Assembly: GCA_000002445.1 (NCBI GenBank)
Contig: CP000071.1
Span: 1,376,001-1,440,000 of the forward strand
From: Trypanosoma brucei
Lineage: Eukaryota
DNA length: 64,000 nucleotides
Reading direction: 5' to 3'
A program made the translations under genes and the position numbers. The notes beneath the pieces were generated by a model that was given only the letters and a program-made list of their open reading frames with translations, had not been told where the DNA came from and made no database searches. Shown piece after piece: positions 5,521-57,425 of the stretch; the first letter of the stretch is position 1; every line of letters begins with the position of its first letter.

Positions 5521-5533
5521 CGTGTGTACGTGT

Positions 5534-5564
<31 letters not shown>

Positions 5565-5570
5565 CTGCTT
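5521..5570. repeat. imperfect (GT)n/(AC)n microsatellite in the 5' UTR of AAT copy 1, expanded relative to the other copies
   Basis: Copy 1 reads gtgtgtacgtgtgtgcgtgtgcgtgtgtgtgtgtgtgtgtgtgc. Copies 2-5 carry a shorter tract at equivalent positions (e.g. 8521-8548). This accounts for the 14-bp longer first unit and for the artefactual ORF extension. Confidence 0.9.
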
Positions 5571-5585
5571 GATAGCTTGATGACT

Positions 5586-5606
5586 GAAAAGGGAAAGAAA
5601 AGAAGC
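5586..5606 (-). promoter_or_regulatory. minus-strand polypyrimidine tract plus AG, the likely spliced-leader acceptor region for AAT copy 1
   Basis: The minus strand reads tttctttcccttttcAG about 85 nt upstream of the ATG at 5499. The same element recurs at 8569-8589, 11552-11572, 14535-14555 and 17517-17537. Confidence 0.55.
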
Positions 5607-16067: not shown

Positions 16068-17444
16068 TTACACAGCCACATTGTAGATTGAGGCAGCCGT
16101 ACCAAACACCACAGCGATCACTCCCGATATAAGGAGGAGGTACGTACACACGTAATTTACCACACCCACCTGAGAAATGCCCCAGTTACCACAGTACATC
16201 CGGTACAATGCGGGAATGCAGAAACCAAGGACACCACCGCAGAAACTTCCCAAAAGACCAAATACGGTATTCAGGTCGGGAATGAAGAGGCCAAGGAGCA
16301 GAGCGCATAGAGCCATGCAACCGCAAAACAGGCAGTTCTTCCATGTTTCAAGTGTGTTCAAATCCCACCCAATGATGTAATAGCAGCAATCACGGGCTGG
16401 TTGCATGCATAGTGAAAACCCAACACAGATCTTCAGCAACATGCCCGCAAACGCAATTGCCATCATCACGTCACCCTTCACGTCATAAATCTCAAAGACA
16501 GTTTCTACAGATTTGTTCCCAACATCCGTATAACCGAAGAAACCCGCAATGATGTACACCACACAACACATACTCATGGAATACGTTGTGTGGAGTGTCA
16601 TGCGCCTTGCGCTCGGTTTGCGCATCTCCGAGTAAATGGAAAAACAGTTCATATGGCACAGGTATGAAAACATGAAGATTGACAATCCCTCAATCGCCCT
16701 GTTCCCAGATTTAAACATCTCAACATCCTCGGGAAGTTTCCCATCCTTTAATCCATTTTTCGCGGAGTGCACAACAATGCAGATGACAAAATAAAAAACG
16801 AATAGCACAGCGATAGCGGAAGCGTAACGTAGTGAGTTGATTTCCTTGGGTAACGAGAGTGAAAACATTCCAACAAACCATATGATAGACGTGATCACGC
16901 GATTGCCCGTCTTTCCCTGAAAGAACTCCAATGTAGTGCACCCAGAAGCAACAGAGCCGACAAGGTAACCGGTAGCAATTACATAACTCACGCACGTCCC
17001 AAAGGTGAACAACCACGAGACCGATATAGTGAAGTAATCCCACCCGGGTCCAAAAAGGTTCCTCGAGAGATCCGTGTATGAGTTGTACCCTGTCATTTCT
17101 ACTGCCTGCATCATCAGCCCAACGGAGTATATAGTCAACACAGTTACAGTAATTAGAATGAGGATTGATGGGATCACACCACTCATCTGAAAAGCGATAG
17201 CGAGACTTATGACTCCAGCCCCCAATGTGGCACTCCCAAGGTTAAACGTTGTCGAAAGGGCACCACCATGGGGAATGATTGCATTTATACATTGCATGAA
17301 TTTGGAGTCTGTTGTCGGAGTGTCACCATTCTTGTGATGACTTTTCTCGTCTGCCGCTGACATCGCGCCGTATCCCTCACCCTCATCGGTAACAACCTCC
17401 GTGTGGGCCTTTCCAGAGCCTAATGGTTCTGTAGGGCTCAGCAT
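16068..17444 (-). CDS. amino acid transporter (AAT family), array copy 5 (458 aa)
   Basis: The protein is identical to copy 1 (type A). Confidence 0.85.
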   Translation of the reverse strand: MLSPTEPLGSGKAHTEVVTDEGEGYGAMSAADEKSHHKNGDTPTTDSKFMQCINAIIPHGGALSTTFNLGSATLGAGVISLAIAFQMSGVIPSILILITVTVLTIYSVGLMMQAVEMTGYNSYTDLSRNLFGPGWDYFTISVSWLFTFGTCVSYVIATGYLVGSVASGCTTLEFFQGKTGNRVITSIIWFVGMFSLSLPKEINSLRYASAIAVLFVFYFVICIVVHSAKNGLKDGKLPEDVEMFKSGNRAIEGLSIFMFSYLCHMNCFSIYSEMRKPSARRMTLHTTYSMSMCCVVYIIAGFFGYTDVGNKSVETVFEIYDVKGDVMMAIAFAGMLLKICVGFSLCMQPARDCCYYIIGWDLNTLETWKNCLFCGCMALCALLLGLFIPDLNTVFGLLGSFCGGVLGFCIPALYRMYCGNWGISQVGVVNYVCTYLLLISGVIAVVFGTAASIYNVAV

Positions 17445-31800: not shown

Positions 31801-34800
31801 GAGACACACACCACGCACAGGCTCTTCGGGCAAGAACGGGTAACGCTCACGGAGGTCCTCAGCACGGACTGCGGCACGGAGCCTAGAGGAACGGAGGTCA
31901 CTCACGATTTTGTCAGCAGCGTCACGCAATAATTTCTCCTGCTGAGCCCGGGCCGTCGGATCCATATTAGATGCATCCTGCGTGTAGCGAGATGCTAGCT
32001 CCGCAAATGTGGGATCTGACATGAGATGCAACTCGCCCAGCGGGATCCCTTTCAAGGTGCGTCCCAGAAACGGGTAAGCTGCTGCAAGGGACTCCTCTTC
32101 GGCCTTGCGTTCTTCAACAATCGCCCTCACTCGCTTGGCCAGTCCAGCCTCAGCCTCTCGAATAACCTCTGCATTTACTTCGTTAGGTCCCTTCGCTTTC
32201 TCTTCATCGCGTCTCTTCATGAGTTCACAGAATTCGTCGTCATCCTCCAACGTCAAGTCCCGCGGAACCTCAGCCAGCAGCGAAGGGTCAACAAAGGAGT
32301 ACAGTGAAGCATCGCGTGCAGCTGCTCGCTGCTCTGCTGATTGGAGCTTCAGAACGTCTCCTGCAATTTGGCCTGCTCGTCGGCAGAGTTGCTCATATAT
32401 TTGCTTCTCGAGGGGTGATTCGGGCTTTCTACCATCGGGAACAAGTTCGTTGTACCGCGCCAGCAACTCCTGGAAGTACGGGTCATCCTCAAGGTACAAC
32501 TCAGCCTGCGACACACCCAAAAACGTCTCCGGAAGAAAAGGGTACACAACAGCAGCAACGCTCCCCCTAGCGCCAGGGAGTCCACCAGCAAAACTTTCAC
32601 CATCAGAACTAGTCCTTGCACCCTTTGCTGCACTTGTTCCATCTAACGCACCTGCACCTCCCACACTGCCAGACGCGGTCGGGTCACCACCAGCTGCACT
32701 CTTCATGCTCAAGCTCATCTCACGTTCAAGCTGGCGCAGCGCGTCGGCGTTCTTGACGGGATCACGCATCAGTTCGTCATACCGAGCGCACTGCTGTTGG
32801 AACACCGGGTCATGTAATAGCTTCTCCGACAACTCGAGACCGTCTTGTGAGGCAAGGAATGGACATTTATTAAGCAACGCGCGCCTAACCGACTCATTAA
32901 GCGCCAGCTCATCAGCACGAGCACGCAACGCCTCCTCCAGCTCTGTCAGTCGCTCCGCATTTGCCTCAGCGTCCTCAAGCGCGGAGAGGTGCTCATTAAA
33001 CAATTTCTGATACCCATCATCTTTGGAAAGCGGTATGTCACTGAGGAGCACGCACTTACGATCTTCGTACAAAAGGAAGGGATTGCACGCACGCACATAC
33101 TCATTGGCGTCTTCACTCTCCTTCTCAGCCAGTCTTGCAAGACGAGCAAGGTCCTTAACCCGCTGCAACATCTCTTCCTCAGTCGCTACCGCATCTTTGC
33201 CACCGTCGCTGCTACTCTTCTGCTGCAACCAGCGCTGGCCCAACTGAGAAAACATTGCATCATCATTGATTGGAAGCTCACCAAGAGGAATACCCATTAC
33301 TCGTTTCGGAAGGAAGGGATACTGTTTATGGACCGCATCCGTTTTCGTAGCATTCTCCTCGGCCAATTGCGTCACGAGCGCCTTCATTTTCTCCTCCATA
33401 GCAGCAATCGCCTCTGCGTTGCCTGCCGGATCGCGGCGTAGCTCGTCCAGCTCATTCGACAGGTCACGGAACTCCTGTTGCTGAGCAGGTCGCACATCTG
33501 CGAGACACACACCACGCACAGGCTCTTCGGGCAAGAACGGGTAACGCTCACGGAGGTCCTCAGCACGGACTGCGGCACGGAGCCTAGAGGAACGGAGGTC
33601 ACTCACGATTTTGTCAGCAGCGTCACGCAATAATTTCTCCTGCTGAGCCCGGGCCGTCGGATCCATATTAGATGCATCCTGCGTGTAGCGAGATGCTAGC
33701 TCCGCAAATGTGGGATCTGACATGAGATGCAACTCGCCCAGCGGGATCCCTTTCAAGGTGCGTCCCAGAAACGGGTAAGCTGCTGCAAGGGACTCCTCTT
33801 CGGCCTTGCGTTCTTCAACAATCGCCCTCACTCGCTTGGCCAGTCCAGCCTCAGCCTCTCGAATAACCTCTGCATTTACTTCGTTAGGTCCCTTCGCTTT
33901 CTCTTCATCGCGTCTCTTCATGAGTTCACAGAATTCGTCGTCATCCTCCAACGTCAAGTCCCGCGGAACCTCAGCCAGCAGCGAAGGGTCAACAAAGGAG
34001 TACAGTGAAGCATCGCGTGCAGCTGCTCGCTGCTCTGCTGATTGGAGCTTCAGAACGTCTCCTGCAATTTGGCCTGCTCGTCGGCAGAGTTGCTCATATA
34101 TTTGCTTCTCGAGGGGTGATTCGGGCTTTCTACCATCGGGAACAAGTTCGTTGTACCGCGCCAGCAACTCCTGGAAGTACGGGTCATCCTCAAGGTACAA
34201 CTCAGCCTGCGACACACCCAAAAACGTCTCCGGAAGAAAAGGGTACACAACAGCAGCAACGCTCCCCCTAGCGCCAGGGAGTCCACCAGCAAAACTTTCA
34301 CCATCAGAACTAGTCCTTGCACCCTTTGCTGCACTTGTTCCATCTAATGCACCTGCACCTCCCACACTGCCAGACGCGGTCGGGTCACCACCAGCTGCAC
34401 TCTTCATGCTCAAGCTCATCTCACGTTCAAGCTGGCGCAGCGCGTCGGCGTTCTTGACGGGATCACGCATCAGTTCGTCATACCGAGCGCACTGCTGTTG
34501 GAACACCGGGTCATGTAATAGCTTCTCCGACAACTCGAGACCGTCTTGTGAGGCAAGGAATGGACATTTATTAAGCAACGCGCGCCTAACCGACTCATTA
34601 AGCGCCAGCTCATCAGCACGAGCACGCAACGCCTCCTCCAGCTCTGTCAGTCGCTCCGCATTTGCCTCAGCGTCCTCAAGCGCGGAGAGGTGCTCATTAA
34701 ACAATTTCTGATACCCATCATCTTTGGAAAGCGGTATGTCACTGAGGAGCACGCACTTACGATCTTCGTACAAAAGGAAGGGATTGCACGCACGCACATA

Positions 34801-37800
34801 CTCATTGGCGTCTTCACTCTCCTTCTCAGCCAGTCTTGCAAGACGAGCAAGGTCCTTAACCCGCTGCAACATCTCTTCCTCAGTCGCTACCGCATCTTTG
34901 CCACCGTCGCTGCTACTCTTCTGCTGCAACCAGCGCTGGCCCAACTGAGAAAACATTGCATCATCATTGATTGGAAGCTCACCAAGAGGAATACCCATTA
35001 CTCGTTTCGGAAGGAAGGGATACTGTTTATGGACCGCATCCGTTTTCGTAGCATTCTCCTCGGCCAATTGCGTCACGAGCGCCTTCATTTTCTCCTCCAT
35101 AGCAGCAATCGCCTCTGCGTTGCCTGCCGGATCGCGGCGTAGCTCGTCCAGCTCATTCGACAGGTCACGGAACTCCTGTTGCTGAGCAGGTCGCACATCT
35201 GCGAGACACACACCACGCACAGGCTCTTCGGGCAAGAACGGGTAACGCTCACGGAGGCCTTCAGCACGGACTGCGGCACGGAGCCTAGAGGAACGGAGGT
35301 CACTCACGATTTTGTCAGCAGCGTCACGCAATAATTTCTCCTGCTGAGCCCGGGCCGTCGGATCCATATTAGATGCATCCTGCGTGTAGCGAGATGCTAG
35401 CTCCGCAAATGTGGGATCTGACATGAGATGCAACTCGCCCAGCGGGATCCCTTTCAAGGTACGTCCCAGAAACGGGTAAGCTGCTGCAAGGGACTCCTCT
35501 TCGGCCTTGCGTTCTTCAACAATCGCCCTCACTCGCTTTGTTTTGTTAAGTTCTATTTGCTGCTTCTTTTCGTTGTCTGTTACTGTTCTTTGTTCTTCCT
35601 TCAGTAGCTGCTGTATTTCGTTGTCTTCGTATATGTTTAAGGATGCTATTTTTATACCCTTTACTGTCTTTTGTATATTCTGAAAATTTTTCATAAGTCT
35701 TCCTACCTTTCTTTCTTCTGCTTCGATCTCGCTGCGGAAGGCTTTGTGCAGCTGTGATTTTCTCTTCGCCATTCTTGTTTGAAGGATGCGCTGCAATTTG
35801 ATACCTGCGGGAGTACCTTCTTCCTTAATTCTTTGATATTCGCGATGGAGTTCCTGGTAATATTTATCATTCATTATTTCCTCCTCAATGTAAGTGTTTA
35901 TTTCGTCTTGAGAAAGTCCAGTATCATGAGTATCCTTTATTTCATCATCACTGACATCCGACGGTGTTGATGTCATTATCTCCTGCGTCGTTCTGGCCAG
36001 CTCAGCTTCAAGCCTCTGTAGCTTCTCAGCGTTTTTGTCTATATCGTCCATGAGTTCATCATGATCGCCAACAAGTTTTGCGACAAGTGGGTTGTGGAGC
36101 ATGTTGGGGTCGATGTTTCGCCCAAGCATCGGGTATGTTTTGCGCAGCTCATCTACTTCGCGCACCTTGGCTGCCCGACCCTTGCGTTCATTTTCAAGTA
36201 TGTCGCGCACGCTATTAAGGAGATCGGGATGAACTGCATCAGGCGATCCGTCGCCTGTCATTGCAAGGACTCCTTGGCTTTCTAGGAGACGAATGTCCTC
36301 TAGACTAAGTGGCTTCAGTTCGTGGAACATCTCCATTATCTTTTCAATCTTCTTTATCTCCTCCAGGGCAATTTCATCTGCTCTACATGCAAGTCGGAAT
36401 CGAACACTAGCGACGGAGTCTTCATCCAATTTGAATCGTTGCAGAAGAGATTTGTACTCAGCAAGAAGCTGGTTGAACAGGTTGTCCTCGCTCAAGCGAA
36501 TGTGACGCAAAGGAAAACACTTCCGCGTTGTGTAAATAAGAAAGGGGTTTCCGGAGAGTACAGCATCATCGGCATCGGCGAGCAGAACTTCACTTAAGTG
36601 TGCGCCAGACGCAAGTTGCACAACCCTTGACTGAAGCACAGTTTCTTTTTTCGTTGTGGTCTCCTTCTCAGAAGCGGCAAATACTTCATCATCTTTGATT
36701 GGAAGCTCACCAAGAGGAATACCCATTACTCGTTTCGGAAGGAAGGGATACTGTTTATGGACCGCATCCGTTTTCGTAGCATTCTCCTCGGCCAATTGCG
36801 TCACGAGCGCCTTCATTTTCTCCTCCATAGCAGCAATCGCCTCTGCGTTGCCTGCCGGATCGCGGCGTAGCTCGTCCAGCTCATTCGACAGGTCACGGAA
36901 CTCCTGTTGCTGAGCAGGTCGCACATCTGCGAGACACACACCACGCACAGGCTCTTCGGGCAAGAACGGGTAACGCTCACGGAGGTCTTCACTCTCGATG
37001 GCTTCACGCCATTGGCGCACATTGCTCTCACGAGCGATGGCAAGTGCGTGGTTTAGCATCTCCCTTACAAGCCGCTTTCGCCGAAGATCGTTGGAGGTAC
37101 CAAGTGAGTTGGGGAGCTTTGAATACTGCTCTGCTTTCTGCGCAAACTTTTGGTTTTCTTCCAAATGCATGGTTGACGTATCTATACCTTCCATCCTACT
37201 TGGAATAAAGGGATATTTTTGGTTGTGCTCTTTGATCTGCGTCGTGCGCCTCACGGCAAGCCAAGCCACACGGTCGTTGGCGCGCGCGTTGAGCTTGTCT
37301 ACTTCCGCTACGACGACTGGTTTCATTGCGGTAAGTTTCTCACGAGCTATCACAAGAGCCATGAACTCATTATCCCCTTCCACGTCAAGGGCATCCAGGG
37401 TGAATCCGAGGTGCCGACGGCTTACAAATGGGTATTTGGCCTCTGAACGCTGTCGCCTTCTGAAACGGTTTGCATTTACCTTCCGTACCCAAACATTCAT
37501 CTGGAGTACCCGCTCCTCCATCTGATGTGTAAGCCCCAGTGCCGTTGGTGAATCATCTGCGTTGTTCTTGAACTCGGCATTGCGGCGTTGGGATAAAACC
37601 ACGTAGTAATCATCACGCATGTTCGGCACGGTTTCCACTACAAAATTCTCTGTTGTGAAACTTTCAACGTCGTAGTTCAGCCTCTGCAGTTCATTATCGT
37701 CGTGGCGCCGTGCCGCAAGGTGATGCACCGCCACCGCCAGTTCTGATTGCAACTTGCTATCAGTATTCTTCTTCGCTAACTGATCCATCAGCGTTGCCGC

Positions 37801-40800
37801 CGCCGAGTCCTCATGCAACCGTAACATAGAAAGTCGTTGATGATAAGGCCTTTCCTCAAGAAAGGGAAACTGCTGATGTAACTCCTCGTCGTCCACCGCG
37901 AGGCACGTGCGCACGATGGAAGCCCGTTCCCACATGGCTTCAAGCTTCGCAGATATTAGGGCATGGATCCATTCTGCTTCGGCGTCCCCACGGGAAACAC
38001 AAAGGCGATGCACGCGAAGAAGGTCATGCAGGTGTGTATCTCCGGCAAGATCGGTAGCAGAAACGGAGTAGCGCTTTGATGACGAAAGCCAGGGCGACAA
38101 CTCCTTCCGCCACCGAAAGGCGTCGAGCTCGATCTCATCAACACGGCTGGCCAGCTGACCCTGAATTTGCACAAGGCCTGGTCCTAAAGATTGTGACATG
38201 GTGCATTTTCGTATCTGGTCAATTAGTGTTCTAACTTGTTCATCCTCCAACACGTAAATCCATGGTATCGGAAGCATGAGGTTGACGTACCCCCCGTGCG
38301 TATCGCTAAACTCCTGTTCCTGGCGGTCGACAAAAGCCCGTTCAAGAGCTGTATCCTTTGCCTTCTTGGCAACATACTCACATATAGCATACTCCAAGGC
38401 GTTCGTTTGTTTAGAATCATCGCTGCTGCGCAACTTATGCACAAGATCCATAAAAAATCCATCGTCTTCAAGTCTGAGGCTTGCCGTCCGCACCCCATGG
38501 ACCTCGGCGCGAAGGAAGGGGTACCGTTTTAGTATATCACCCTCTTGGATGGAACGATGTAGCTCCCACATCCGCTCCTTCATTGCCTGTTCCAGTTGCC
38601 TGCTCTCAGTTGTGTCCTTGCTTGCTCGCGCCCGCTGATGGGCAAGTTCAACGAACACCTCATCTTCCAGCAGCCGAACATCAACAAATGGAAAGCTGTC
38701 GACACGAGTTGCAAGGAAAGGATACCTCTGCAAGATCCCACGATATACCACTGGCCTGGAAGAGAGGTGCTGCTCGAGATAACGAAGGTTCTCTAGATAC
38801 GCCAAAAAATCAGGATCGTCTTTCGGTACACCGGCTTTGTCGAACGCAAGACCGGCCCTCTTGAGCGACTCTCCCGCATCACTTAAGCGATTAAGGTCAA
38901 TTTCAATCGCACCTTTGTTATTTTGTACGACAGCATACTCCCTACTCTGAACACCAAATAAGTCTGCCGCCTTATCTCCGGCCTCCCGCAGCAACGTCAT
39001 ACAGTGCTCTACATATTTTTCACGATCCCATGAGCGGTAAATGTGTGCACCATCAGTTAAAAGGGACGGCAAGTCGCGCGATTCAGTTGGTTTCTTCTTG
39101 CTAATTGTAATCGCGGTGAGAAGTACACGTATTGCGTCCTCGTACCAACCTTCAGACTCAAGTTGCAGACTTAAGTCCCACAGATAGTACATAAAATAGT
39201 CTGACGCCCAACCAATGGTACTGAGTTCGACAGAATGGCTCACGAGCTCCTTTGTGTTAACGGAGCAAGAGGGAAGAAGTTGTTTACACTGAAGAAGCCC
39301 CTTGTACGGCTGAAGATGCAGCCATGCACCGTGCTCACTCTTAAGATAGCCCGGAAGCTTTTCGATAGCACTATAGAAGTGCTTCGCAGCCTCCTCGACA
39401 CAGCTTCTGTAAGTGGCCAGCTCGTCAGACTGATACAACGTCGCCACGCGCAGCAGCCAGAAGCCATACTCAATGTGAAGGCGGCCTTGCGTTACAGGGC
39501 CCGTCAATTCTTCGAAACCGCGCATTGTGTCAGGAAACAAGCCCCGGCCCTCCGCAATGTAGTCTTTTTCCATAGTTGCAAAGCACACCTCGCACACGCT
39601 ACGGCGCGAATAGAGGGGTGACAGGCTCACAGGAGCACACAGTTCCATGTGCGCTTTTGCAGTTTCACGTACTAGGGCAAGTGCTTCATCATAATGCCCA
39701 TCCCAGCACGCCACCTTCCATCGGACCGGCAGACAAAAGGCATACCGATAACCATCTTGTGTAACGATTGTCCTGTATTTTTCACTTAGTGCGCGAACAT
39801 ACTGAGGATCTATCAATTTGGGTAATACACTGGCGTTGACGTGGGCGTGCCATCTCATTACTGTGTGATTTTTGGAAGTTTTTTCAATGGAAACTCCAAT
39901 AAGGGCACATATGCGCGCCACAATATCCGCCTTCCTCCCCATACGTATGTCTGTTAGGGACTTGATGAGATCCTCATCGGAATCTATTATGCCATATTTC
40001 TTGGCTACAACCTCCAAAAAGATACTGCGGAAATTATCCAGGTTTGTGAAGGCTGCCCCGATGTGTTTCGAGACGGTGCCGGCCAGTATATCGTCATCGT
40101 ACGCCACGCGTTTTCCTTGAACTTCCAAATAGAACTCCTGTTTCACCGACCGTGCAATCATTTCAATGGATATCAACTCCCTCACTCGTTGTGTCACATC
40201 AGGGGAATACCTCCCCACACCCTCAGTTTTACACACCACTTGCTTCAGGAGGCACATGTTGATGCCGATTGAGTGCAGCACATCGCACAGTTTCCTCAAG
40301 CGCTCGCCGTTTGAGCGAGACTCGCTGTCCACACAAGCGTGCACAATGCGGTCGAGCACTTCAGTGTTGTCAAGCAACGAAACTGTGTCCATATGACCAT
40401 CTGTCACATTGCCACAAAGCCTCAGCATCTCTTGGCGCTTCATGATTGTATCGTCAACAAACAACGGGGTTAGAGTTGAGTTGGAATTGGTTAGGTACAG
40501 GCGGCCATCCAATCCCTCATACACCTCAAGAGTGCCGTCGGGAAATGGGATATTGAGAGCATCCGCCATGTGGAGGATCTCCGCCTCGACCTCGCTGTCA
40601 TCTGTGGATTCAGCCCCATAAAGGCGGGTCGGGTTGGCCGACATAGGGACTAAGGCCTGCGCAAGCACAGGCATTCCGCGGTAGAAAATCATGCAGGAGA
40701 GCGGCACAGTCAACAGGCGGCTACGACTCTGCAGCACACCGCGGAGTGAGGCCACATAGTTCCTTCCCGAACGGCTGTCAGGTAGAACACGGAAGAAAAT

Positions 40801-41307
40801 GTTGTCCACGCGATAACACTGCAGAAATTTCGGGAGCTCCCGAGGCCCGTTATCGTCGAGCGTCACGATCTGCTTCGCCTTGCGGGTGGCCTCCTCCACG
40901 AACTCCTTCTCAATCCGGCGAAGCGCCTCCATCCGGCTCACAGCCTGGGAAATGGTGTTGTCCTCCGCTTCCCACGCAAACTGGAACTCTGCATTCCAAT
41001 TCCTAGCATACCGCGTGATGTCAGCACAAGACGCAAGAAATGGCTTCGGTGCCGTCTGCTGCATCGGAAACGCAGCTATTTTTCTGATGGAAAGTCTATG
41101 CCGGGACGCCTCCAGCATTGAAACGTGACGTTGTGCTGTACGCTGGGAACTAGTGCTTGTCAATCGCGAATAAGAGGATCGCACATCCTCGATTGGAACT
41201 CCCTGGTTTTCGGGGGTGGTAGGAAACATTACACCCGGCTTCCGGTCCCGTGCATTCGAATCAACTGATGGATTACGGCGCTGTTCATTTTGATTGCGCC
41301 GTCTCAT
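28852..41307 (-). CDS. giant repeat protein (4,151 aa) with a non-repetitive N-terminal ~1,000 aa that may carry a CLU-like domain (tentative), then more than 25 copies of a ~20-aa YPFL motif, and an acidic low-complexity C-terminus
   Basis: This is a single uninterrupted ORF starting at the ATG at 41307 (MRRRNQ). Motif instances include LRERYPFLPEEPVRGVCLADV, HKQYPFLPKRVMGIPLGELPI, AAAYPFLGRTLKGIPLGELHL, LQRYPFLATRVDSFPFVDVRLL and NQKYPFIPSRMEGIDTSTMHL. The N-terminal region contains a G-L-D-G-R-L-Y-L-T segment reminiscent of the CLU-domain GxDGRxYxLD signature. The C-terminus is rich in E, D, G, A and V. Confidence 0.75.
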   Translation of the reverse strand: MRRRNQNEQRRNPSVDSNARDRKPGVMFPTTPENQGVPIEDVRSSYSRLTSTSSQRTAQRHVSMLEASRHRLSIRKIAAFPMQQTAPKPFLASCADITRYARNWNAEFQFAWEAEDNTISQAVSRMEALRRIEKEFVEEATRKAKQIVTLDDNGPRELPKFLQCYRVDNIFFRVLPDSRSGRNYVASLRGVLQSRSRLLTVPLSCMIFYRGMPVLAQALVPMSANPTRLYGAESTDDSEVEAEILHMADALNIPFPDGTLEVYEGLDGRLYLTNSNSTLTPLFVDDTIMKRQEMLRLCGNVTDGHMDTVSLLDNTEVLDRIVHACVDSESRSNGERLRKLCDVLHSIGINMCLLKQVVCKTEGVGRYSPDVTQRVRELISIEMIARSVKQEFYLEVQGKRVAYDDDILAGTVSKHIGAAFTNLDNFRSIFLEVVAKKYGIIDSDEDLIKSLTDIRMGRKADIVARICALIGVSIEKTSKNHTVMRWHAHVNASVLPKLIDPQYVRALSEKYRTIVTQDGYRYAFCLPVRWKVACWDGHYDEALALVRETAKAHMELCAPVSLSPLYSRRSVCEVCFATMEKDYIAEGRGLFPDTMRGFEELTGPVTQGRLHIEYGFWLLRVATLYQSDELATYRSCVEEAAKHFYSAIEKLPGYLKSEHGAWLHLQPYKGLLQCKQLLPSCSVNTKELVSHSVELSTIGWASDYFMYYLWDLSLQLESEGWYEDAIRVLLTAITISKKKPTESRDLPSLLTDGAHIYRSWDREKYVEHCMTLLREAGDKAADLFGVQSREYAVVQNNKGAIEIDLNRLSDAGESLKRAGLAFDKAGVPKDDPDFLAYLENLRYLEQHLSSRPVVYRGILQRYPFLATRVDSFPFVDVRLLEDEVFVELAHQRARASKDTTESRQLEQAMKERMWELHRSIQEGDILKRYPFLRAEVHGVRTASLRLEDDGFFMDLVHKLRSSDDSKQTNALEYAICEYVAKKAKDTALERAFVDRQEQEFSDTHGGYVNLMLPIPWIYVLEDEQVRTLIDQIRKCTMSQSLGPGLVQIQGQLASRVDEIELDAFRWRKELSPWLSSSKRYSVSATDLAGDTHLHDLLRVHRLCVSRGDAEAEWIHALISAKLEAMWERASIVRTCLAVDDEELHQQFPFLEERPYHQRLSMLRLHEDSAAATLMDQLAKKNTDSKLQSELAVAVHHLAARRHDDNELQRLNYDVESFTTENFVVETVPNMRDDYYVVLSQRRNAEFKNNADDSPTALGLTHQMEERVLQMNVWVRKVNANRFRRRQRSEAKYPFVSRRHLGFTLDALDVEGDNEFMALVIAREKLTAMKPVVVAEVDKLNARANDRVAWLAVRRTTQIKEHNQKYPFIPSRMEGIDTSTMHLEENQKFAQKAEQYSKLPNSLGTSNDLRRKRLVREMLNHALAIARESNVRQWREAIESEDLRERYPFLPEEPVRGVCLADVRPAQQQEFRDLSNELDELRRDPAGNAEAIAAMEEKMKALVTQLAEENATKTDAVHKQYPFLPKRVMGIPLGELPIKDDEVFAASEKETTTKKETVLQSRVVQLASGAHLSEVLLADADDAVLSGNPFLIYTTRKCFPLRHIRLSEDNLFNQLLAEYKSLLQRFKLDEDSVASVRFRLACRADEIALEEIKKIEKIMEMFHELKPLSLEDIRLLESQGVLAMTGDGSPDAVHPDLLNSVRDILENERKGRAAKVREVDELRKTYPMLGRNIDPNMLHNPLVAKLVGDHDELMDDIDKNAEKLQRLEAELARTTQEIMTSTPSDVSDDEIKDTHDTGLSQDEINTYIEEEIMNDKYYQELHREYQRIKEEGTPAGIKLQRILQTRMAKRKSQLHKAFRSEIEAEERKVGRLMKNFQNIQKTVKGIKIASLNIYEDNEIQQLLKEEQRTVTDNEKKQQIELNKTKRVRAIVEERKAEEESLAAAYPFLGRTLKGIPLGELHLMSDPTFAELASRYTQDASNMDPTARAQQEKLLRDAADKIVSDLRSSRLRAAVRAEGLRERYPFLPEEPVRGVCLADVRPAQQQEFRDLSNELDELRRDPAGNAEAIAAMEEKMKALVTQLAEENATKTDAVHKQYPFLPKRVMGIPLGELPINDDAMFSQLGQRWLQQKSSSDGGKDAVATEEEMLQRVKDLARLARLAEKESEDANEYVRACNPFLLYEDRKCVLLSDIPLSKDDGYQKLFNEHLSALEDAEANAERLTELEEALRARADELALNESVRRALLNKCPFLASQDGLELSEKLLHDPVFQQQCARYDELMRDPVKNADALRQLEREMSLSMKSAAGGDPTASGSVGGAGALDGTSAAKGARTSSDGESFAGGLPGARGSVAAVVYPFLPETFLGVSQAELYLEDDPYFQELLARYNELVPDGRKPESPLEKQIYEQLCRRAGQIAGDVLKLQSAEQRAAARDASLYSFVDPSLLAEVPRDLTLEDDDEFCELMKRRDEEKAKGPNEVNAEVIREAEAGLAKRVRAIVEERKAEEESLAAAYPFLGRTLKGIPLGELHLMSDPTFAELASRYTQDASNMDPTARAQQEKLLRDAADKIVSDLRSSRLRAAVRAEDLRERYPFLPEEPVRGVCLADVRPAQQQEFRDLSNELDELRRDPAGNAEAIAAMEEKMKALVTQLAEENATKTDAVHKQYPFLPKRVMGIPLGELPINDDAMFSQLGQRWLQQKSSSDGGKDAVATEEEMLQRVKDLARLARLAEKESEDANEYVRACNPFLLYEDRKCVLLSDIPLSKDDGYQKLFNEHLSALEDAEANAERLTELEEALRARADELALNESVRRALLNKCPFLASQDGLELSEKLLHDPVFQQQCARYDELMRDPVKNADALRQLEREMSLSMKSAAGGDPTASGSVGGAGALDGTSAAKGARTSSDGESFAGGLPGARGSVAAVVYPFLPETFLGVSQAELYLEDDPYFQELLARYNELVPDGRKPESPLEKQIYEQLCRRAGQIAGDVLKLQSAEQRAAARDASLYSFVDPSLLAEVPRDLTLEDDDEFCELMKRRDEEKAKGPNEVNAEVIREAEAGLAKRVRAIVEERKAEEESLAAAYPFLGRTLKGIPLGELHLMSDPTFAELASRYTQDASNMDPTARAQQEKLLRDAADKIVSDLRSSRLRAAVRAEDLRERYPFLPEEPVRGVCLADVRPAQQQEFRDLSNELDELRLDWEGNSETIAAMEEKMKALVTQLAEENATKTDAVHKQYPFLPKRVMGIPLGELPINDDAMFSQLCRRRARQAKLAGGAKGAVAIEKEMLQRVKDLARLARLAEKESEDANEYVRACNPFLLYEDRKCVLLSDIPLSKDDGYQKLFNEHLSALEDAEANAERLTELEEALRARADELALNESIRCALLLKYPFLSSLDGLNDLTMLLRDPAFQQQCARYDELMRDPVKNADALRELEEEMNRRGEYLSCCDARGDGRKRAMSFVILMTPSGGNAAEGASNLVGTGSRKSFNVSPRKSRLSIVDADQNQHLSSLMLMPNESAMECFKETEVVSFDACSRRKLHKMRGQKRRKTHFFSDGGAAVDGEEEALVGDAETVVDDAAVGVKGDHDDASEGALAPSIDAGVGEESDNLKTAAGAEVVGDETSSVAVAGGVCDDGKSGSICAADAEDAEGDGGVTDVVEGEGAIVNDGSISGLTDHREADALCASERDAEGSAEKGDRPEGDELLALRRRRMEEFDAELEELLVLENRSRSLHEEDERHDRDHIMLTCEDEEKTMENRRRAAEKVKRLVGEEEPGARREVEAGEKEEIEDLRQAQMLSLRLIECVVALSKKETEKRHAIEAEERKSVKAINCARETSARDALTAQEQREKDEQVAKKEVQKQEATSLIKSVIFAYRARRRLANRFLNRRAHEHKNAMEDIYGVEHNSRLAIVNEEKSDLQALFELKDFLTQKVQKVSHKVFVELEKEEDDARHQLIDDFMVHLKNLQRASRKVLSKQRDQTPSLQDLLRFEQHEEAMRTGEGSDLEAGLGGAGEEAGGDESADEEKEEDYDEPLKTGRYKGYVLDSIGTFLLKYERDLRCFRATLEKNRADTAVEHDLLKKTRDNATQDVVHNSNGASWVPTRPLPLSDLVRGPSAQYRRGRIADVRGTKSTSKLNGVDGKNGLAGEPAPAESSRKTH
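31030..35535. repeat. near-identical 1,701-bp (567-codon) tandem repeat inside the giant CDS, about 2.65 copies
   Basis: The ORFs 32105..33010 and 33806..34711 and their neighbours are identical at an offset of 1701 bp. Copy boundaries are at about 31030, 31310, 33011, 34712 and 35535. A dispersed partial copy of about 310 bp lies at 36690-37000. Confidence 0.9.
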
Positions 41308-50399: not shown

Positions 50400-53300
50400 T
50401 CAATAGGGTCCCAAAGTCGATGCGCTCCTCAATGAGAGGTGACGCGTTGAGGTCCGAGAGGGTGTCGTCGCAGCTGTCGTGGATGTTTGCGGAACACTAT
50501 TTGTCCCCTCGGCAGCGCCAACGTAGCAATTGAGCACCGGAAGAGGGTTCACGACAAGACCCTCGTCGCGGAAATGCAGCCACATCGCGGAAGATCTAAA
50601 TATATCCAAGCGTACAAGAACGCGAAGTTCTCCTGGCGTCAAACGGACCCCTTTACTCCGTTGACGACTTAGTAGTTGCTCTCTCGTCTCCGCATACACG
50701 GCTAAAGGTACATGCCACTCTCTACAAAAGTTCACACCACGGTCCCCAATTCGGAAAGCCATCCCGTCATCACTTATTCCCATTGGTAATTCGAAACGAG
50801 GCCACAGACCTGTGACATGACTAAGGCCAATCACCCATGCCTCGAATTCAGGTGGAGAGTCACACACAAAATCTACTCGTTCTTCTCTCCCGTACGAGTC
50901 CTTTTCGTGCTGTGTGTGAATAACACCCCAACTGGTGTAACACACACCCCCAACAGAGTCTTCTTTGACGCGCCCCAACAGAATACTTGTTATCAAACAA
51001 AGCGGGAAGGAGCCCTCCTTCCCTAGAGAGCCAACAACCGACCAGCACAAGCGGGGTTCTCTAGACTTGACATCTACATAAATAAGTCGACTGTGGCATG
51101 TACCATCACTGTTAAACTTTCTGACTTTACCCCCCATCTTCATGAAAGAAGCAACGTCATCCAAAAACTCGGGGTCATCATACTTTGTCTGGTGGACCCC
51201 CTTCTCCTTTTTGCGGGAACGGGTGTTTGCCCCAATATCAGCATCCACGCGCATCCAGTACGGGAACGGTTGGGCCGCTAACTCCTTTCCCTTAGGTGTC
51301 CACGGTCCCAGCACTGAGCGTAATACTTCACGGTAATTCCTGCCACCCCCTTCGTTAAAATGCGTGGTCGCGCTATCTGTCACAGCACGGGCCATGCTGA
51401 GCCTCCACATCTCCAGCACCTCTTCATTTTGCGACTGGTACCGATCCTGCTCTTCTTCTAGTAGAGTCGAAAGTTGTTTGTTCCTGTACATTAAGTTACA
51501 CATTGTGAGACACGTTGTTGCTAATTCAGCTGCCTCTCCCACATCAGACGAAATTTCAGACAATTCATCTTCTCCCTCCTCGTCGTCCCATTCTCCCCCC
51601 AGTTCCCAATGAGTCGACTCTTCACCAGAGTAATCGTTGTAAGCACCGCCGTTGTGACCTCCATTGAGGTGGGCCTCACTATACTCTAATCCGGTGATCA
51701 CGTTGTCTGTCTTTTCAATGTCCGTCGCAACGAGTTTACAACGCTGATGGAGCTGACGGCGCATGGAGCGAGTATCTCTATAGTCGGTAGCTTCCTTCAC
51801 AAGTCTCCTTTCCCACGCCTGCCACTCGTCTGTAGTCAATGGGCCATCATCCGCTGAGGCCGTCTCTAAGCGCGAGTGAAGCTCCATGTACCCATTTTTC
51901 CACTCCTCAACCATTTCGTCACACAGCTCGCGCCGCAATTCCTCTTGTCGCTCCTCCTCGTTTGCAGTCTCCTTCTCTGACGCGACAGCTTTCAGTGCAT
52001 CACATAGGGTAAACATACCAATATATCGTGCATCAGAGTCCCTGAGGCGTATATTGAAGGCCGTGTCGTACAGAAGATTGTTTCTATCTGCTGCCACATG
52101 CTTTATGACCTCTGGGGGGGAAAAGCTGTGCTTTTCCCGAGCGATGGCCAAATCTGCAGATAACTCCGCAAAGCACCGAACTGACGAGTGGAAACTCCCT
52201 GCTTTTGGCGAATCGAGGTCATTATTTGTGTTGCGGATAGCGGTGGAAGATACCTTGAGCTCTTTCACTTTGTTGGCGAAGTGAAGAGACGAAACCGTCT
52301 CATCGAATGTAAGCACAGTTGGGCTCACCGTTACGATTAGAACGACGTGAGAATTTGGGGCGGCGAAAGTGTCGCGAAGAACGGTTGTGAGCTTTGTGTT
52401 GCGATACGGGATGTGCGCCGCGCCCTCATACAGGGCATGCACAACACTTCCTAATGCAGTCAGTGACGAGTTAATTTTTTTAAGCTCGTCAAAACCAATA
52501 CTATTCACCTTGACGTTTCCCGGCTTCTCACTTCCCGCAAGATCTACCAATGACAACTTACTGTACATTACGGGAGCATTGGCATCGCCAAGTAGGTCGT
52601 TCGAAGCGTCAGCAAACAACGCATGTGTGTGCGATATGGGTCTCGTTCCCGGGGGGCACACCTGAGACGCTTCCTTCAAAGCTAAGCACTGTGGTAGAGT
52701 CAACGGTTTGGTGCTCACAGTTGTTATAGGCTGTTGGTACACCTCGATATTAAAAATTGCATGGGAACGGGACGATTTGTCGTTTCCGAAGGTCATTCGT
52801 TGCATACGTTTGGCCGATGCCTCCTGGTACACCCGCAGTGCATCGTCAAGCTCAAGGATCGGCACGTACTCAAGATTCGAAAAGAGAACGTGGTCCTTTG
52901 TGACAGCCATCTGCACAACCGCGGGGGACTCGCCAGCACTCAACAAATCTCTCACTTCTTCCAGGTAAATTTCAAGAGCGGAAATTCCAACAACAGTATG
53001 CGATGAATTTCTGCGCAAAGATGCGTAGTTCAGTATATCTTGAAGAGAGCGGAGGAGGACACCCGACTCACTTGTAATGAGTTCTCCATTTGCTGCCTCA
53101 GGATTTGTCACTCCAAGAATTGTATATGTCTTCCCACTCCCAGTTTGGCCGTATGTTAACAGCGACGAGTTGGTACCGCTTACCACGTTTTCTACCGCAG
53201 ACAAAGCGAGCGCCTCGTATACCTCCTCCTGCGTCGCATCTTCATCAAACACGCAATCGTACGCAAAGTGAACCGTGCGTCCATTCCCCACTGAGCAACC

Positions 53301-53444
53301 ATCACTTACCCGCAGTGTGGTGTCAGAAAGCACCGCGCAGGCTTTCTTCTGTTGGAACTCTGACACGTGCTGCGGATTCGCTGCTCCCTTCACCAGGGGC
53401 CGCACTCGCACACCAACACTAACCAAAGCGGAACTATTTACCAT
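50400..53444 (-). CDS. kinesin motor protein (1,014 aa) with an N-terminal motor and a C-terminal PH-like domain
   Basis: The track start is GTG, so I used the ATG at 53444 (MVNSSALVSVGVRVRPL). Motor motifs are present: GQTGSGKTYT (P-loop), SSRSHAIF (switch I) and LVDLAGSE (switch II). The C-terminal ~120 aa (MKMGGKVRKFNSDG...RLCWS...EFEAWVIGLSHV) has a PH-fold pattern with a terminal Trp helix. Confidence 0.85.
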   Translation of the reverse strand: MVNSSALVSVGVRVRPLVKGAANPQHVSEFQQKKACAVLSDTTLRVSDGCSVGNGRTVHFAYDCVFDEDATQEEVYEALALSAVENVVSGTNSSLLTYGQTGSGKTYTILGVTNPEAANGELITSESGVLLRSLQDILNYASLRRNSSHTVVGISALEIYLEEVRDLLSAGESPAVVQMAVTKDHVLFSNLEYVPILELDDALRVYQEASAKRMQRMTFGNDKSSRSHAIFNIEVYQQPITTVSTKPLTLPQCLALKEASQVCPPGTRPISHTHALFADASNDLLGDANAPVMYSKLSLVDLAGSEKPGNVKVNSIGFDELKKINSSLTALGSVVHALYEGAAHIPYRNTKLTTVLRDTFAAPNSHVVLIVTVSPTVLTFDETVSSLHFANKVKELKVSSTAIRNTNNDLDSPKAGSFHSSVRCFAELSADLAIAREKHSFSPPEVIKHVAADRNNLLYDTAFNIRLRDSDARYIGMFTLCDALKAVASEKETANEEERQEELRRELCDEMVEEWKNGYMELHSRLETASADDGPLTTDEWQAWERRLVKEATDYRDTRSMRRQLHQRCKLVATDIEKTDNVITGLEYSEAHLNGGHNGGAYNDYSGEESTHWELGGEWDDEEGEDELSEISSDVGEAAELATTCLTMCNLMYRNKQLSTLLEEEQDRYQSQNEEVLEMWRLSMARAVTDSATTHFNEGGGRNYREVLRSVLGPWTPKGKELAAQPFPYWMRVDADIGANTRSRKKEKGVHQTKYDDPEFLDDVASFMKMGGKVRKFNSDGTCHSRLIYVDVKSREPRLCWSVVGSLGKEGSFPLCLITSILLGRVKEDSVGGVCYTSWGVIHTQHEKDSYGREERVDFVCDSPPEFEAWVIGLSHVTGLWPRFELPMGISDDGMAFRIGDRGVNFCREWHVPLAVYAETREQLLSRQRSKGVRLTPGELRVLVRLDIFRSSAMWLHFRDEGLVVNPLPVLNCYVGAAEGTNSVPQTSTTAATTPSRTSTRHLSLRSASTLGPY

Positions 53445-53751
53445 AGCCTCCTTGGTGATTAGCACGCTGCAAGGCAGACGTCAAACCACTGGAAGTACAG
53501 GTGAGACAGGTGGGAGTGAGAAGGACAAAAGTGGTAACCACAAGCATTAGCTGCCACAAAGGTGGTCAGAATGAGAGAAAGTCTTCAGGTGGCGACAAAA
53601 ACAAGAATTAAAAAAAAAGTGGCGTGAGGGGTGTTACTGAGTAAATCTTTTTTTTTAAAGCAAAGTTCGATCCGGTTTCAACGAAACTTATCGGCAACTG
53701 CATGCCCATGTAACACGAGAAACTAAAAGGAAATACCAAAACCGAGCGGCA

Positions 53752-54654
53752 TCATATGTTGAAGATGATACCCTCTTCTATGAGCTGCTCGATGGCGGGT
53801 TTGATCAGCTTCCGGATTGTCTGCTCCGCCTTACAATCTGCACCCTGCACTGAACCAAAATTAGACAACACCCGGAAACTTTTCAGCGGATCACCAAAAA
53901 GCTGCATCTTCACCACGCGTTGCTTCACTAGCACTTTAGTCGATAAAATGTCAAAGAATGGTGGGGAAACATTGCGCACCCTCAAAGAATGCCTCGGATG
54001 ACCCTCCGATGCTCCTTCCATATCCACTGATGAAAGTGAACCATCAATGGAGTCGAGTACACCCGGCAACCGCATTGCCCCCCGGCCGCCACCGCCAAGT
54101 AAAACACCGTACCCCGAGCGGTGACGAGTGGACGGGGTGCCTGCACGACACGGTGGGCGCATACCATTTGTGTTTTTCCTGCTTCTGACAGTCGTCGCGA
54201 GGGGGGCAACTGGTACATCGGCGCATTTTCCCCATTGCACATTTTCTTCAAGTTCCTGAAGAATCTCAATGGCGACCATTCCATCGATGAGAATGTCCCG
54301 TAATGTCATCTCAAACGGGCAAAAAAATGGAAGGGCGAAGTTATTGTCGGCTTCCTCGGCGCCGGACCCCACCATATCGAGGTTCACCTCAAGCCCACTA
54401 AGGCGAATGAAAAAATCACCAGTGTAACGCACCTTCACCATTATTACTGTGCGCTCAGCCGACAGCATTCGTATTCCACTGAGCGTGACTTCAGGAGGGT
54501 TGGACCCCAGATTAAGTTCATCTACGTTCACAGTGCCACGAATTTGCCCATCGCTACCCTCAGCCATGGAGTTCCGGATGGCGCGCTCAACGGCCGCGCG
54601 AATCAACTCCCTTCTCTCTGCGCACAGTGAAGTGGGCCACTCCCACTGCAGCAT
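53752..54654 (-). CDS. SMP (lipid-transfer) domain protein, Mdm12-like (300 aa)
   Basis: I used the ATG at 54654 because the track start is GTG. The N-terminus (MLQWEWPTSL...LIRAAVERAIRNS...VNVDELNLGSNPPEVTLSGI) and the middle region (VKVRYTGDFFIRLSGLEVNLDM...ALPFFCPFEMTLRDILIDGMVAIEI) follow the Mdm12/Mdm34/Mmm1 SMP pattern. This is pattern-level similarity only. Confidence 0.45.
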   Translation of the reverse strand: MLQWEWPTSLCAERRELIRAAVERAIRNSMAEGSDGQIRGTVNVDELNLGSNPPEVTLSGIRMLSAERTVIMVKVRYTGDFFIRLSGLEVNLDMVGSGAEEADNNFALPFFCPFEMTLRDILIDGMVAIEILQELEENVQWGKCADVPVAPLATTVRSRKNTNGMRPPCRAGTPSTRHRSGYGVLLGGGGRGAMRLPGVLDSIDGSLSSVDMEGASEGHPRHSLRVRNVSPPFFDILSTKVLVKQRVVKMQLFGDPLKSFRVLSNFGSVQGADCKAEQTIRKLIKPAIEQLIEEGIIFNI

Positions 54655-54974
54655 CACCTAACCTCTATTTGTTGTCCACCACTACAGAAACAAACAGACC
54701 TAAGTAACTCCGGTGGTCCGCCGGATGGGGTGGGGAATGGGGACCAGCTCACGAAGCTGGCAAAAGCAAGAGAAAAAAGACAACAACTTATTGTGCCAAA
54801 GGGAACAGGGGTGATCTTGTCCCCTGTTCCTATTATCATCCTGTATTCATTTAACCAGCAAGTGAGGAATACTAGTGCCCGGACGAACGTACAGTGAAGT
54901 GCCAAAAGGGGGAAAAAACATTCGCAATTATACGAGTAAAAGCAGTATGATCAATGCCATACCGAAGCCACAAC

Positions 54975-57014
54975 TTATACCAATTGCTCCCCAGGCGAGC
55001 GACCAAATGGTATCACGCTACCACGCATACTCCCAACATCCAGAGCTGCCTTCCCCGGTGGCTTCGTGTGCTGCCCAAAGCGGCGAAGGACGATGTCACG
55101 AGGACTAAGTTTCCACTCTGTACGCAACTGCCTGAGCTCATGAGGGGGAACTTGAATCACAGGGATATCCTCATCATATTGAGGTGCTTCACCCTTTTCG
55201 GAGTCACCTTGTAAGCTCTCGCCGATAACTTTGATAAAATCATTTACAACAGGGGATTCACCAAAAGCATCCCTGCACAAATTCACACAAATCTCGGTGT
55301 CCGCATTCGGTCGAATCTTCAACAAAGTGAAGAAACCCACGAGCTCCTCCGTCATGGAAAGCGAACCATTCGATGAAATGGCGTTTGAGTTTGCCAACAA
55401 AAGCGAATTAATCATCCGCGTCGTCAAAGGCTTGCCAAACCCTACAATTCTCTTCAAGGCACTAAACCCTGAAGCAACCGCGCCAAGGTGGGCACACAAT
55501 TCAAGAAACTGATCGTAGATGGGTGAAATAAGATCCACACTACTACCCACAGCTTCCAACCGCTTGATCAAGGTTTCAGATCTCTCTAGCATGGCCGCGG
55601 TTGGCTTCTCGCAGTTACTGCAAGCCTGGATAAAGAGGAGCACCATCTCCGGTGTCGGATTCATATTCTGATGGACAAAATGTTGGTCAAATATGGCAAG
55701 TGCTAGTTCACCATCGCGCTGAAGTGCGCAGTACATGAATGAAAGAGTGAAGAGGACAAAATCTGGCGTTAAGCCTCGTGGTCGCAGTTGAGATAAGACG
55801 TCCATGACGTAATCTCCAAAACCAGCAACCCCACGGATCGCATAGACCAGCCAATGGAAGCATTCTATGGAAAGGCGGATATCAGATGCATCTGCGAAAC
55901 CCTGTGCTTTCAAAACAAGCGTTGGTTTATTGAAGGCACAACACATGCGCATGTACGCCTCAATTGAAGCGGTTGTTCGGGGCAGCTGATAAAAGTCAAA
56001 AAGGGACCAAACTTCCAAACCCATTTTCTCCACCTCCTCAGGTTCACACAGGTAGGATCTTTCGCCCTCGCTGGTGGCCCTTGACGCTTCATGTTTTGAC
56101 ATTTGTTCCCCCAAAATTGAATACAGTATCATGGCCTTGTTCAGCATGGTACCGCGGGGTCGAAGATTTCGTTTGATAACCTCCTCCAGGGTGTCTATGC
56201 CTTCGCTTACGCGACCCGCTGCAACACAAAGAGTAAGCAATGCATCGAAGAAAAACGTGTTGAGGATGAAGGACTCGGGGGACTCTTTCTCAAGTTCCCT
56301 CGCACGATTTGCGTACACGTTCCATCCCTCTTCCCACTTGCCACAAGCCGCAGCACATAACACCATCTCGCCGTGTGTCTCCACACCCACCTCTACAGGA
56401 GGGATGTTTGTTACAATCATGCGCTCGAACATTTCCACAGCACATTGGAAGCTAGCGTGGCGCCCCCACACTTCCAGCATCTCAATCTGCTGTCTCTGGT
56501 ACCGTATAAGGGCGGCACAACTTTTATCCGGTAGTGGCACTCTTTGGTATAAAAAGTCAGTGAGCAAACGACCCGGCGTTGGTAACAAGCGAGCGTGCCT
56601 GACAAGTTTGTCGACGTCAAGTAAGTGCATATCCCGTTTAAAATATCCGTACCGAGCATACCGAAGGTTTCTTGCTAGCGCTGTCTGGTTATAAATGTGC
56701 TTTATATGAGGCCGATCGGGGTCCACCCACACGCGGTGAGCCTTCTCGAAACCAGGCTCACCACCGTAGAGGCCCATAGCGGCGTTTGTAAGGGCAGGAC
56801 GGTGCAGCTCGCGGTATGCGGGGCTGCGAACATGTTGCTCACGGGCCAACAGGTTCTGCTCTGTATCGTCAAACCAAAGTGGCGCCGTACAATCAACTTT
56901 TTCTCGGGTCACATCCCCTCCCTTTTGTTTTCGTCGATTTTCCGCTGCATACCATTCGGCTGCTTTCACTGCTGCTGCGGCGAGGCGCAGACGGGGGACG
57001 GCGTGCGACAGCAT
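54975..57014 (-). CDS. helical-repeat (PPR-like) protein, probably mitochondrial (679 aa)
   Basis: The track start is GTG, so I trimmed to the first ATG at 57014 (MLSHAVPRLRLAAAAVKAAEWY), which is an amphipathic, presequence-like N-terminus. The body has repeated hairpin units of about 35 aa (e.g. MVLLFIQACSNCEKPTAAMLERSETLIKRL). Confidence 0.5.
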   Translation of the reverse strand: MLSHAVPRLRLAAAAVKAAEWYAAENRRKQKGGDVTREKVDCTAPLWFDDTEQNLLAREQHVRSPAYRELHRPALTNAAMGLYGGEPGFEKAHRVWVDPDRPHIKHIYNQTALARNLRYARYGYFKRDMHLLDVDKLVRHARLLPTPGRLLTDFLYQRVPLPDKSCAALIRYQRQQIEMLEVWGRHASFQCAVEMFERMIVTNIPPVEVGVETHGEMVLCAAACGKWEEGWNVYANRARELEKESPESFILNTFFFDALLTLCVAAGRVSEGIDTLEEVIKRNLRPRGTMLNKAMILYSILGEQMSKHEASRATSEGERSYLCEPEEVEKMGLEVWSLFDFYQLPRTTASIEAYMRMCCAFNKPTLVLKAQGFADASDIRLSIECFHWLVYAIRGVAGFGDYVMDVLSQLRPRGLTPDFVLFTLSFMYCALQRDGELALAIFDQHFVHQNMNPTPEMVLLFIQACSNCEKPTAAMLERSETLIKRLEAVGSSVDLISPIYDQFLELCAHLGAVASGFSALKRIVGFGKPLTTRMINSLLLANSNAISSNGSLSMTEELVGFFTLLKIRPNADTEICVNLCRDAFGESPVVNDFIKVIGESLQGDSEKGEAPQYDEDIPVIQVPPHELRQLRTEWKLSPRDIVLRRFGQHTKPPGKAALDVGSMRGSVIPFGRSPGEQLV

Positions 57015-57425
57015 CCACCCGGGACGGTTGAAAACTAGTGAAAGTGTAAAGTTGGAAGGGAAAAGGCGATTGAAAACGGACCATATCGGGGTAGAAAAAT
57101 AGCAACAGTACCAATAACAACCAGGAAAAAAGTGCACGAACACAACGGACGCATCCACCCGCCCTCATGCTCACATGGATACCTACCTTCTAATGCACAT
57201 CAGACAGTAAATCTATTTATGTATAAAAATGATAATAGAGCACACCTTCGAACCACGGCCACAGCGGGGTAGAGAAGTATGTGAACATTTTTCTTTATTG
57301 TTTGAGGGTACATACAGTAATCGCACGTCACTGTTTCTACCGCTGATGTTTTTTTTCTTGTACATTTCTGGAGAGAGTGTGCCCACCCCAGGGCAACAGA
57401 CCGCTTTCCCTCTCCCATACAATTT

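Follow-up and report, generated by a model that had tools for sequence, protein, structure and literature searches.

Does Trypanosoma brucei possess a lipid-transfer protein of the SMP type and, if so, to which of the SMP families is it closest? This question is raised by the gene Tb927.8.4850, which occupies positions 53752..54654 on the minus strand of a 64,000-nucleotide stretch of contig CP000071.1 (assembly GCA_000002445.1, positions 1,376,001 to 1,440,000; hereafter the window, to whose first letter all coordinates refer). A sequence-only reading of the locus had described its product as an SMP protein resembling Mdm12, a subunit of the endoplasmic reticulum (ER)–mitochondria encounter structure (ERMES). 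The SMP fold and the homology behind it stood up to our analysis, but the nearest family is apparently Mdm34 (also termed Mmm2) and not Mdm12. With moderate confidence, we regard Tb927.8.4850 as a soluble or peripheral single-domain SMP protein that constitutes the divergent kinetoplastid representative of Mdm34/Mmm2.

The 300-residue protein assigned to this interval was recovered as a complete minus-strand open reading frame (ORF) with an ATG start, consisting of a coding sequence at 53755..54654 (300 codons) and a stop codon at 53752..53754. The ORF call itself spans 53752..54657 and begins with a GTG one codon 5' of the ATG (54657), which was rejected as a start because the segment MLQWEWP opens every orthologue (approximately 30) at the ATG. 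The product is residue-for-residue identical to the T. brucei brucei TREU927 protein XP_847315.1 / AAZ13249.1 / UniProt Q57UW7, which is listed in the supplement of Peikert et al. 2017 as Tb927.8.4850 (Tb08.4A8.550), a "hypothetical protein, conserved" of 32.956 kDa (PMC5436138). It is expressed in procyclic cells, as documented by four peptides and a coverage of 19% in whole-cell mass spectrometry with stable isotope labelling (PMC5436138, Supplementary Data 3), and these peptides together with the conservation of the protein across kinetoplastids rule out a chance ORF. No transmembrane segment was found (maximum Kyte-Doolittle value in a 19-residue window, 1.18), the SMP domain begins at Met1, and a cleavable presequence is absent.

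The kinship of the protein becomes visible solely at the level of profiles or of the fold. A profile built from 18 kinetoplastid sequences and searched with hmmsearch against 1.84 billion representative proteins gave 104 matches at E ≤ 1e-3, which include dozens of members of the Mdm34 family and none that is clearly an Mdm12. Beyond the Euglenozoa, the matches comprised a Balamuthia "ERMES complex subunit" (1e-10), proteins of Cyanophora and Diphylleia and many fungal proteins, including a Millerozyma "Mitochondrial distribution and morphology protein 34" (8e-5) which itself carries a strong match to PF26545 (Mdm34_N). Homology to an established SMP family, namely Mdm34-type/ERMES proteins, is thus statistically significant at the profile level (E 1e-10 to 8e-5), and Mdm34 is the sole non-euglenozoan family clearly recovered by this search. 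When a hidden Markov model (HMM) of the yeast-type Mdm34 group was compared with one of 57 Mdm12 proteins, nearly all non-euglenozoan matches scored far higher with the Mdm34 HMM, and the kinetoplastid sequences reached 12-22 bits with the Mdm34 HMM versus 0-5 bits with the Mdm12 HMM. The precomputed Pfam annotation of kinetoplastid proteins contains PF26545 alone and never PF26544, which is listed first on true Mdm12 proteins and is present on 59 of 59.

Profile-profile comparison by hhalign points in the same direction. The kinetoplastid profile aligned with a diverse Mdm34 set at 99.6% (E 1e-23; 126 columns, in the part of residues 1-137), although this set had been chosen by the query profile itself, a bias which counts against the assignment and which the Saccharomycete-only Mdm34 control (96.1%, E 3e-9) reduces, but not wholly. 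The Saccharomycete Mdm12 set, which was yeast-only, gave 37.8% (E 3.4e-4); for scale, Mdm34 and Mdm12 align with each other at 98% (E 1.6e-13). With the Saccharomycete-only Mdm34 set, a separate second match covered the C-terminal part of the domain (columns 144-198, 51 columns, E 3.5e-4). Here FGDPLKSFRVLSNF (FGDPLKSFrVxSNF) is paired with NDPLxSxxVxSTFD in the consensus of Mdm34, while at the other end MLQWEWP aligns from residue 1 with MSFxFNWP of Mdm34. Altogether, the signatures in common with Mdm34 are the M-x4-W-P start, GSxPPE, Y-x-GD and FGDPLKSFRVLSNF. Since the hmmsearch result, the HMM scores, hhalign, the Pfam annotation and these signatures agree, we consider the protein Mdm34-like rather than Mdm12-like in both halves of the domain, as far as sequence comparison can place it.

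The fold predicted for Tb927.8.4850 is an SMP barrel. Two AlphaFold2 models were obtained, one from 21 orthologues with a predicted local distance difference test (pLDDT) of approximately 80-90 in the ordered part, the other from 43 sequences with a mean pLDDT of 73.3, values of 85-96 in the ordered parts and a predicted template modelling score of 0.59. Both contain a helix at residues 12-32, a long twisted strand sheet (38-137 and 241-264) and a C-terminal helix at 272-293, i.e. the elongated alpha/beta barrel with a twisted antiparallel sheet and terminal helices that characterizes the SMP/TULIP fold. The N-terminal part of the domain (54244..54654, minus strand, residues 1-137; pLDDT 86-96 in the second model) consists of the MLQWEWP segment, helix 12-32, strands 38-48, 55-64, 68-78 and 82-91, and a long strand 111-137. 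In the C-terminal part (53755..53958, minus strand, residues 233-300; pLDDT 85-95 in the second model), strands 241-253 and 257-264, where the Mdm34-like motif is found, are followed by helix 272-293 and a last strand. The TULIP barrel that the sequence-only reading proposed to look for was thus found by the models and by Foldseek. In the search of the PDB, the model matched 19 chains of Mdm12 with E ≤ 1e-3, and Mmm1 followed with 1.7e-3; the paired values in the fold-match table were 13.6 and 11.9 for Mdm12 (5yk7_D), 12.1 and 9.7 for Mmm1 (5yk6_A), 10.0 and 9.8 for K. lactis Mdm12 (5h55_A), 8.0 and 6.6 for E-Syt2 (4p42_B), and 7.5 and 7.4 for TMEM24 (5tod_F). Mdm12 ranks first in these fold searches, yet the PDB matches contained no Mdm34 chain, so that Mdm34 was probably beyond the reach of a ranking by structure. 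We know of no solved Mdm34 structure.

An identity as Mmm1 or E-Syt was ruled out by the lack of a transmembrane segment and of a C2 domain. Mmm1 (5yk6), E-Syt2 (4p42) and TMEM24 (5tod) possess an N-terminal anchor and additional domains such as C2, and Tb927.8.4850 has neither; in particular, no hydrophobic segment of the kind that anchors Mmm1 in the ER precedes its SMP domain, which starts at residue 1. The details on which the resemblance to Mdm12 had been based were largely confirmed. The pattern L47-x-L-G-x-x-P-P-x-x-x-L-x-x-I61 is exact, whereas the spacing given for the start (M-x3-W-x2-L) has to be corrected to M1-x4-W6-x3-L10. The two quoted strings are present at residues 73-94 (VKVRYTGDFFIRLSGLEVNLDM) and 108-129 (LPFFCPFEMTLRDILIDGMVAI), and the register suggested for yeast Mdm12 was reproduced independently by hhalign, which pairs VRYTGDFFIRL with the Mdm12 segment and LPFFCPFEMTLRDILIDG with TLPVKLSISDIGLHS (the yeast Mdm12 sequence used is 100% identical to PDB 5vkz/5gyd).

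A lineage-specific insert (53959..54243, minus strand, residues 138-232) occupies the hairpin that joins two long strands of the SMP domain. Its content of G (14.7%), R (11.6%), S (10.5%) and P (9.5%) exceeds that of the remaining protein (6.8, 6.8, 5.9 and 3.4%), in agreement with the G/R/S-rich middle region noticed before, and residues 147-227 are predicted to be disordered (pLDDT < 50). In the alignment to the Mdm34 profile by hhalign, the flanking segments map to the nearly adjacent template columns 141 and 144; because the flanks are contiguous in the template, residues 138-232 represent a clean insertion at a hairpin at one end of the barrel. Both the length and the sequence of the insert vary between species, from approximately 95 residues in T. 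brucei and 135 in Leishmania to several hundred in the relative P0031. Within it lies the motif GYGVLLGGGGRxAMRxP (GYGVLLGGGGRGAMRLP; also GYGVLLGGGGRRAMRPP) at 54064..54114 on the minus strand (residues 181-197), with invariant columns G181, G183, L185, G189, G190, R191, M194, R195 and P197. Trypanosomatids keep the motif unchanged or almost unchanged, and in bodonids a degenerate form of it can still be recognised (GLGLLVGGGGRRAMRQP). A regular-expression scan of the relatives found it only in P0001-P0036 and not in the diplonemid and non-euglenozoan relatives. It is probably a docking or membrane-contact element. Unlike the SMP kinship, the insert and its conserved motif are not mentioned in the literature examined.

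Judged by sequence similarity, the family extends throughout the kinetoplastids, from the trypanosomatids as a whole to Bodo, and more weakly related proteins are found in diplonemids. Orthologues from Trypanosoma, Leishmania, Phytomonas, Angomonas and Bodo score between E 1e-40 and 1e-195; full-length orthologues with 36-72% identity occur in T. congolense, T. vivax, T. cruzi, T. rangeli, T. theileri, Phytomonas, Angomonas, Leptomonas, Leishmania, Porcisia and Novymonas, and Bodo saltans has an orthologue as well. The weaker diplonemid relatives (P0064, P0068, P0071 and P0073), which are likewise full-length, come from transcriptomes of Diplonema ambulator (E 4e-15) and Rhynchopus humris and have E values of 4e-15 to 6e-10.

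SMP domains and lipid transfer by ERMES are well established (PMC2916718; AhYoung 2015 and Kawano 2018 as summarised in PMC7018664). By analogy to other SMP domains, the barrel of Tb927.8.4850 would shield the acyl chains of phospholipids in a hydrophobic groove, and the protein may hand glycerophospholipids between closely apposed membranes. Analogy to Mdm34 would place it on the cytosolic face of the mitochondrial outer membrane at ER-mitochondrion contacts, probably arranged end-to-end with a second SMP protein. The protein has no membrane anchor of its own, and the conserved loop motif would be the best candidate for its attachment to a membrane protein or partner.

Several observations weigh against the assignment to Mdm34 and against this placement. 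The T. brucei protein matched the curated Mdm34_N family (PF26545) only "faintly", with no match reaching E 0.001. The plain Pfam search that had been named as a check came out negative: hmmscan with single sequences found no SMP, MMM1 or Mdm match at E ≤ 10 for Tb927.8.4850 and 21 orthologues, a result that is only partly informative since the Pfam library used, which appears to be without PF26544-7, is also silent on genuine Mdm34 proteins. Searches of PDB sequences by phmmer and by profile hmmsearch gave nothing beyond chance matches. The diplonemid relatives obtain approximately equal scores with the yeast Mdm34 and Mdm12 HMMs, and the long disordered C-terminal tail of fungal Mdm34 is missing in Tb927.8.4850. 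Because no tree with Mmm1, Nvj2/TEX2, E-Syt and PDZD8 underlies it, the link to Mdm34 denotes closest similarity, and orthology is not proven. With respect to location, neither the uncut mitochondrial reference set nor the list of new ATOM40-dependent candidates contains the protein, and its abundance did not fall significantly upon ATOM40 knock-down (ratio 0.67, p 0.22; PMC5436138). This evidence is neutral to slightly negative; it fits a peripheral protein of the cytosolic face and lends no positive support to a mitochondrial location.

How far, then, does the likeness to Mdm34 carry? In its favour are the SMP domain at the extreme N-terminus starting from Met1, the M-x4-W-P start, the lack of a transmembrane segment and the profile-profile values of 96-99.6%. 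The two proteins differ in that their identity is only approximately 20%, the Pfam match remains below threshold, and a hairpin that is tight in Mdm34 carries the 95-residue insert with a kinetoplastid-specific motif in Tb927.8.4850. This insert and the lack of the Mdm34 tail would also suit a lineage-specific SMP lipid-transfer protein, Mdm34-derived or Mdm34-like, that acts outside an ERMES-like bridge, either alone or with kinetoplastid-specific partners, and is recruited via the loop motif to mitochondrion-acidocalcisome, mitochondrion-glycosome or ER-plasma membrane contacts. Such a role is conceivable, though we hold it to be rather unlikely. It would agree with the absence of the protein from mitochondrial reference sets and the importome, with the statement that conventional ERMES has not been identified in trypanosomes (PMC8630539), and with the additional contact of yeast Mdm34 to peroxisomal Pex11 (PMC10469627). 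On the other hand, Mdm34 signatures are found in both halves of the domain, among them the M-x4-W-P start that Mdm34 and Mdm12 have in common, and an Mdm12 candidate that would supply a partner has reportedly been proposed for T. brucei (PMC6027259).

It appears improbable that Tb927.8.4850 is instead the orthologue of Mdm12 in kinetoplastids, Mdm12 being the cytosolic subunit in the middle of ERMES. The protein resembles Mdm12 (5yk7, 5gyd, 5vkz, 5h55; PF26544) in its N-terminal start, and its 300 residues, the SMP-only architecture and the internal disordered insert bring it closer to Mdm12 than to fungal Mdm34; moreover, a broad euglenozoan profile reached 94.8% with Mdm12 in hhalign, and the diplonemid relatives slightly favour the Mdm12 HMM. 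The E values of the kinetoplastid profile, however, are lower with Mdm34 than with Mdm12 by many orders of magnitude (1e-23 or 3e-9 versus 3e-4), the PF26544 annotation carried by all true Mdm12 proteins is absent, the large protein search was just as one-sided, and the insert lies in another hairpin than that of yeast Mdm12, while the first rank of Mdm12 in the fold searches arose among matches devoid of Mdm34. Very improbable, in our view, is a TULIP fold which does not transfer lipids and which, for instance, supports the segregation of the mitochondrial genome purely as a structural component or tether, beside the Mdm10-like beta-barrel TAC40. To our knowledge, Tb927.8.4850 is not among the published components of the tripartite attachment complex; nothing found here connects it to that complex, and the SMP domains studied to date bind lipids. 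The idea draws on TAC40, which has been described as functionally homologous to Mdm10 and as having been recruited to the tripartite attachment complex (PMC8630539), and on the connection of yeast ERMES with nucleoid segregation (PMC13108849). Returning to the Mdm34/Mmm2 assignment that we prefer, its most far-reaching extension, which we put forward as a rather unlikely speculation, is that kinetoplastids and possibly diplonemids have kept a cryptic, remodelled ERMES-type bridge, in which a tail-less Mdm34 subunit would have acquired a disordered loop and would dock via its GYGVLLGGGGRRAMRPP motif to a lineage-specific outer-membrane receptor such as the Mdm10-like TAC40 or components of ATOM.

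Tb927.8.4850 belongs to a minus-strand polycistronic run and is located between the kinesin gene Tb927.8.4840 downstream (50400..53465, minus strand) and Tb927.8.4860 immediately upstream (54975..57158, minus strand). The latter encodes a protein of 76.5 kDa (Q57UW6) without a Pfam domain, which is marked as mitochondrial and ATOM40-dependent in the importome supplements of PMC5436138. Elsewhere in the window, a 4151-residue ORF (28852..41307, minus strand) combines an N-terminal CLU ("clustered mitochondria") domain (E 6e-13) with 14 DUF7623 repeats (E 3.5e-190), and the interval 4123..17444 on the minus strand harbours four tandem ORFs of 458 residues (period approximately 2983 nucleotides) and a relative of 532 residues, all of them Aa_trans amino-acid transporters (E approximately 5e-52). 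All ORFs of at least 250 residues identified as genes in the window lie on the minus strand, as expected of a single trypanosomatid polycistronic unit; on the plus strand, three ORFs reach this size, and each of them is situated inside the 4151-residue gene.

The novelty of the protein is smaller than the sequence-only reading had implied. Q57UW7 carries the automatic UniProt/UniRef name "SMP-LTD domain-containing protein", and Wideman et al. 2013, as cited in PMC6027259 (2018), proposed T. brucei orthologues of Mmm2 (= Mdm34) and Mdm12, which according to the citing paper had not been studied. Given this label and the reported proposal, the kinship is not a discovery, although the citation in PMC6027259 does not confirm that the Mmm2 candidate is the same gene as Tb927.8.4850. 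A literature search by the accessions Q57UW7 and XP_847315 found no paper. We therefore see in Tb927.8.4850 a candidate that was already known, though neglected, and that the sequence-only reading correctly found again. The literature on this point is contradictory: Mmm2 and Mdm12 candidates have been proposed (PMC6027259), whereas other work reports that no conventional ERMES has been identified in trypanosomes, with TAC40 as the sole Mdm10-like protein and the proteins joining the ER to the single mitochondrion stated as unknown (PMC8630539), that Leishmania donovani is without SMP proteins (PMC10341546), and that Diplonema is without Mdm34 and Mdm12 (PMC12699882, a diplonemid mitoproteome of 2025).

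As single-sequence searches of Pfam and the PDB find nothing, the denials of SMP or Mdm34 proteins in Leishmania and Diplonema likely stem from insensitive searches. Tb927.8.4850 is consequently a candidate entry to the ER-mitochondria lipid route in kinetoplastid parasites. A cryptic ERMES, if true, would overturn the common view that trypanosomes and diplonemids are devoid of this structure, and would provide a first molecular handle on their ER-mitochondrion contacts.
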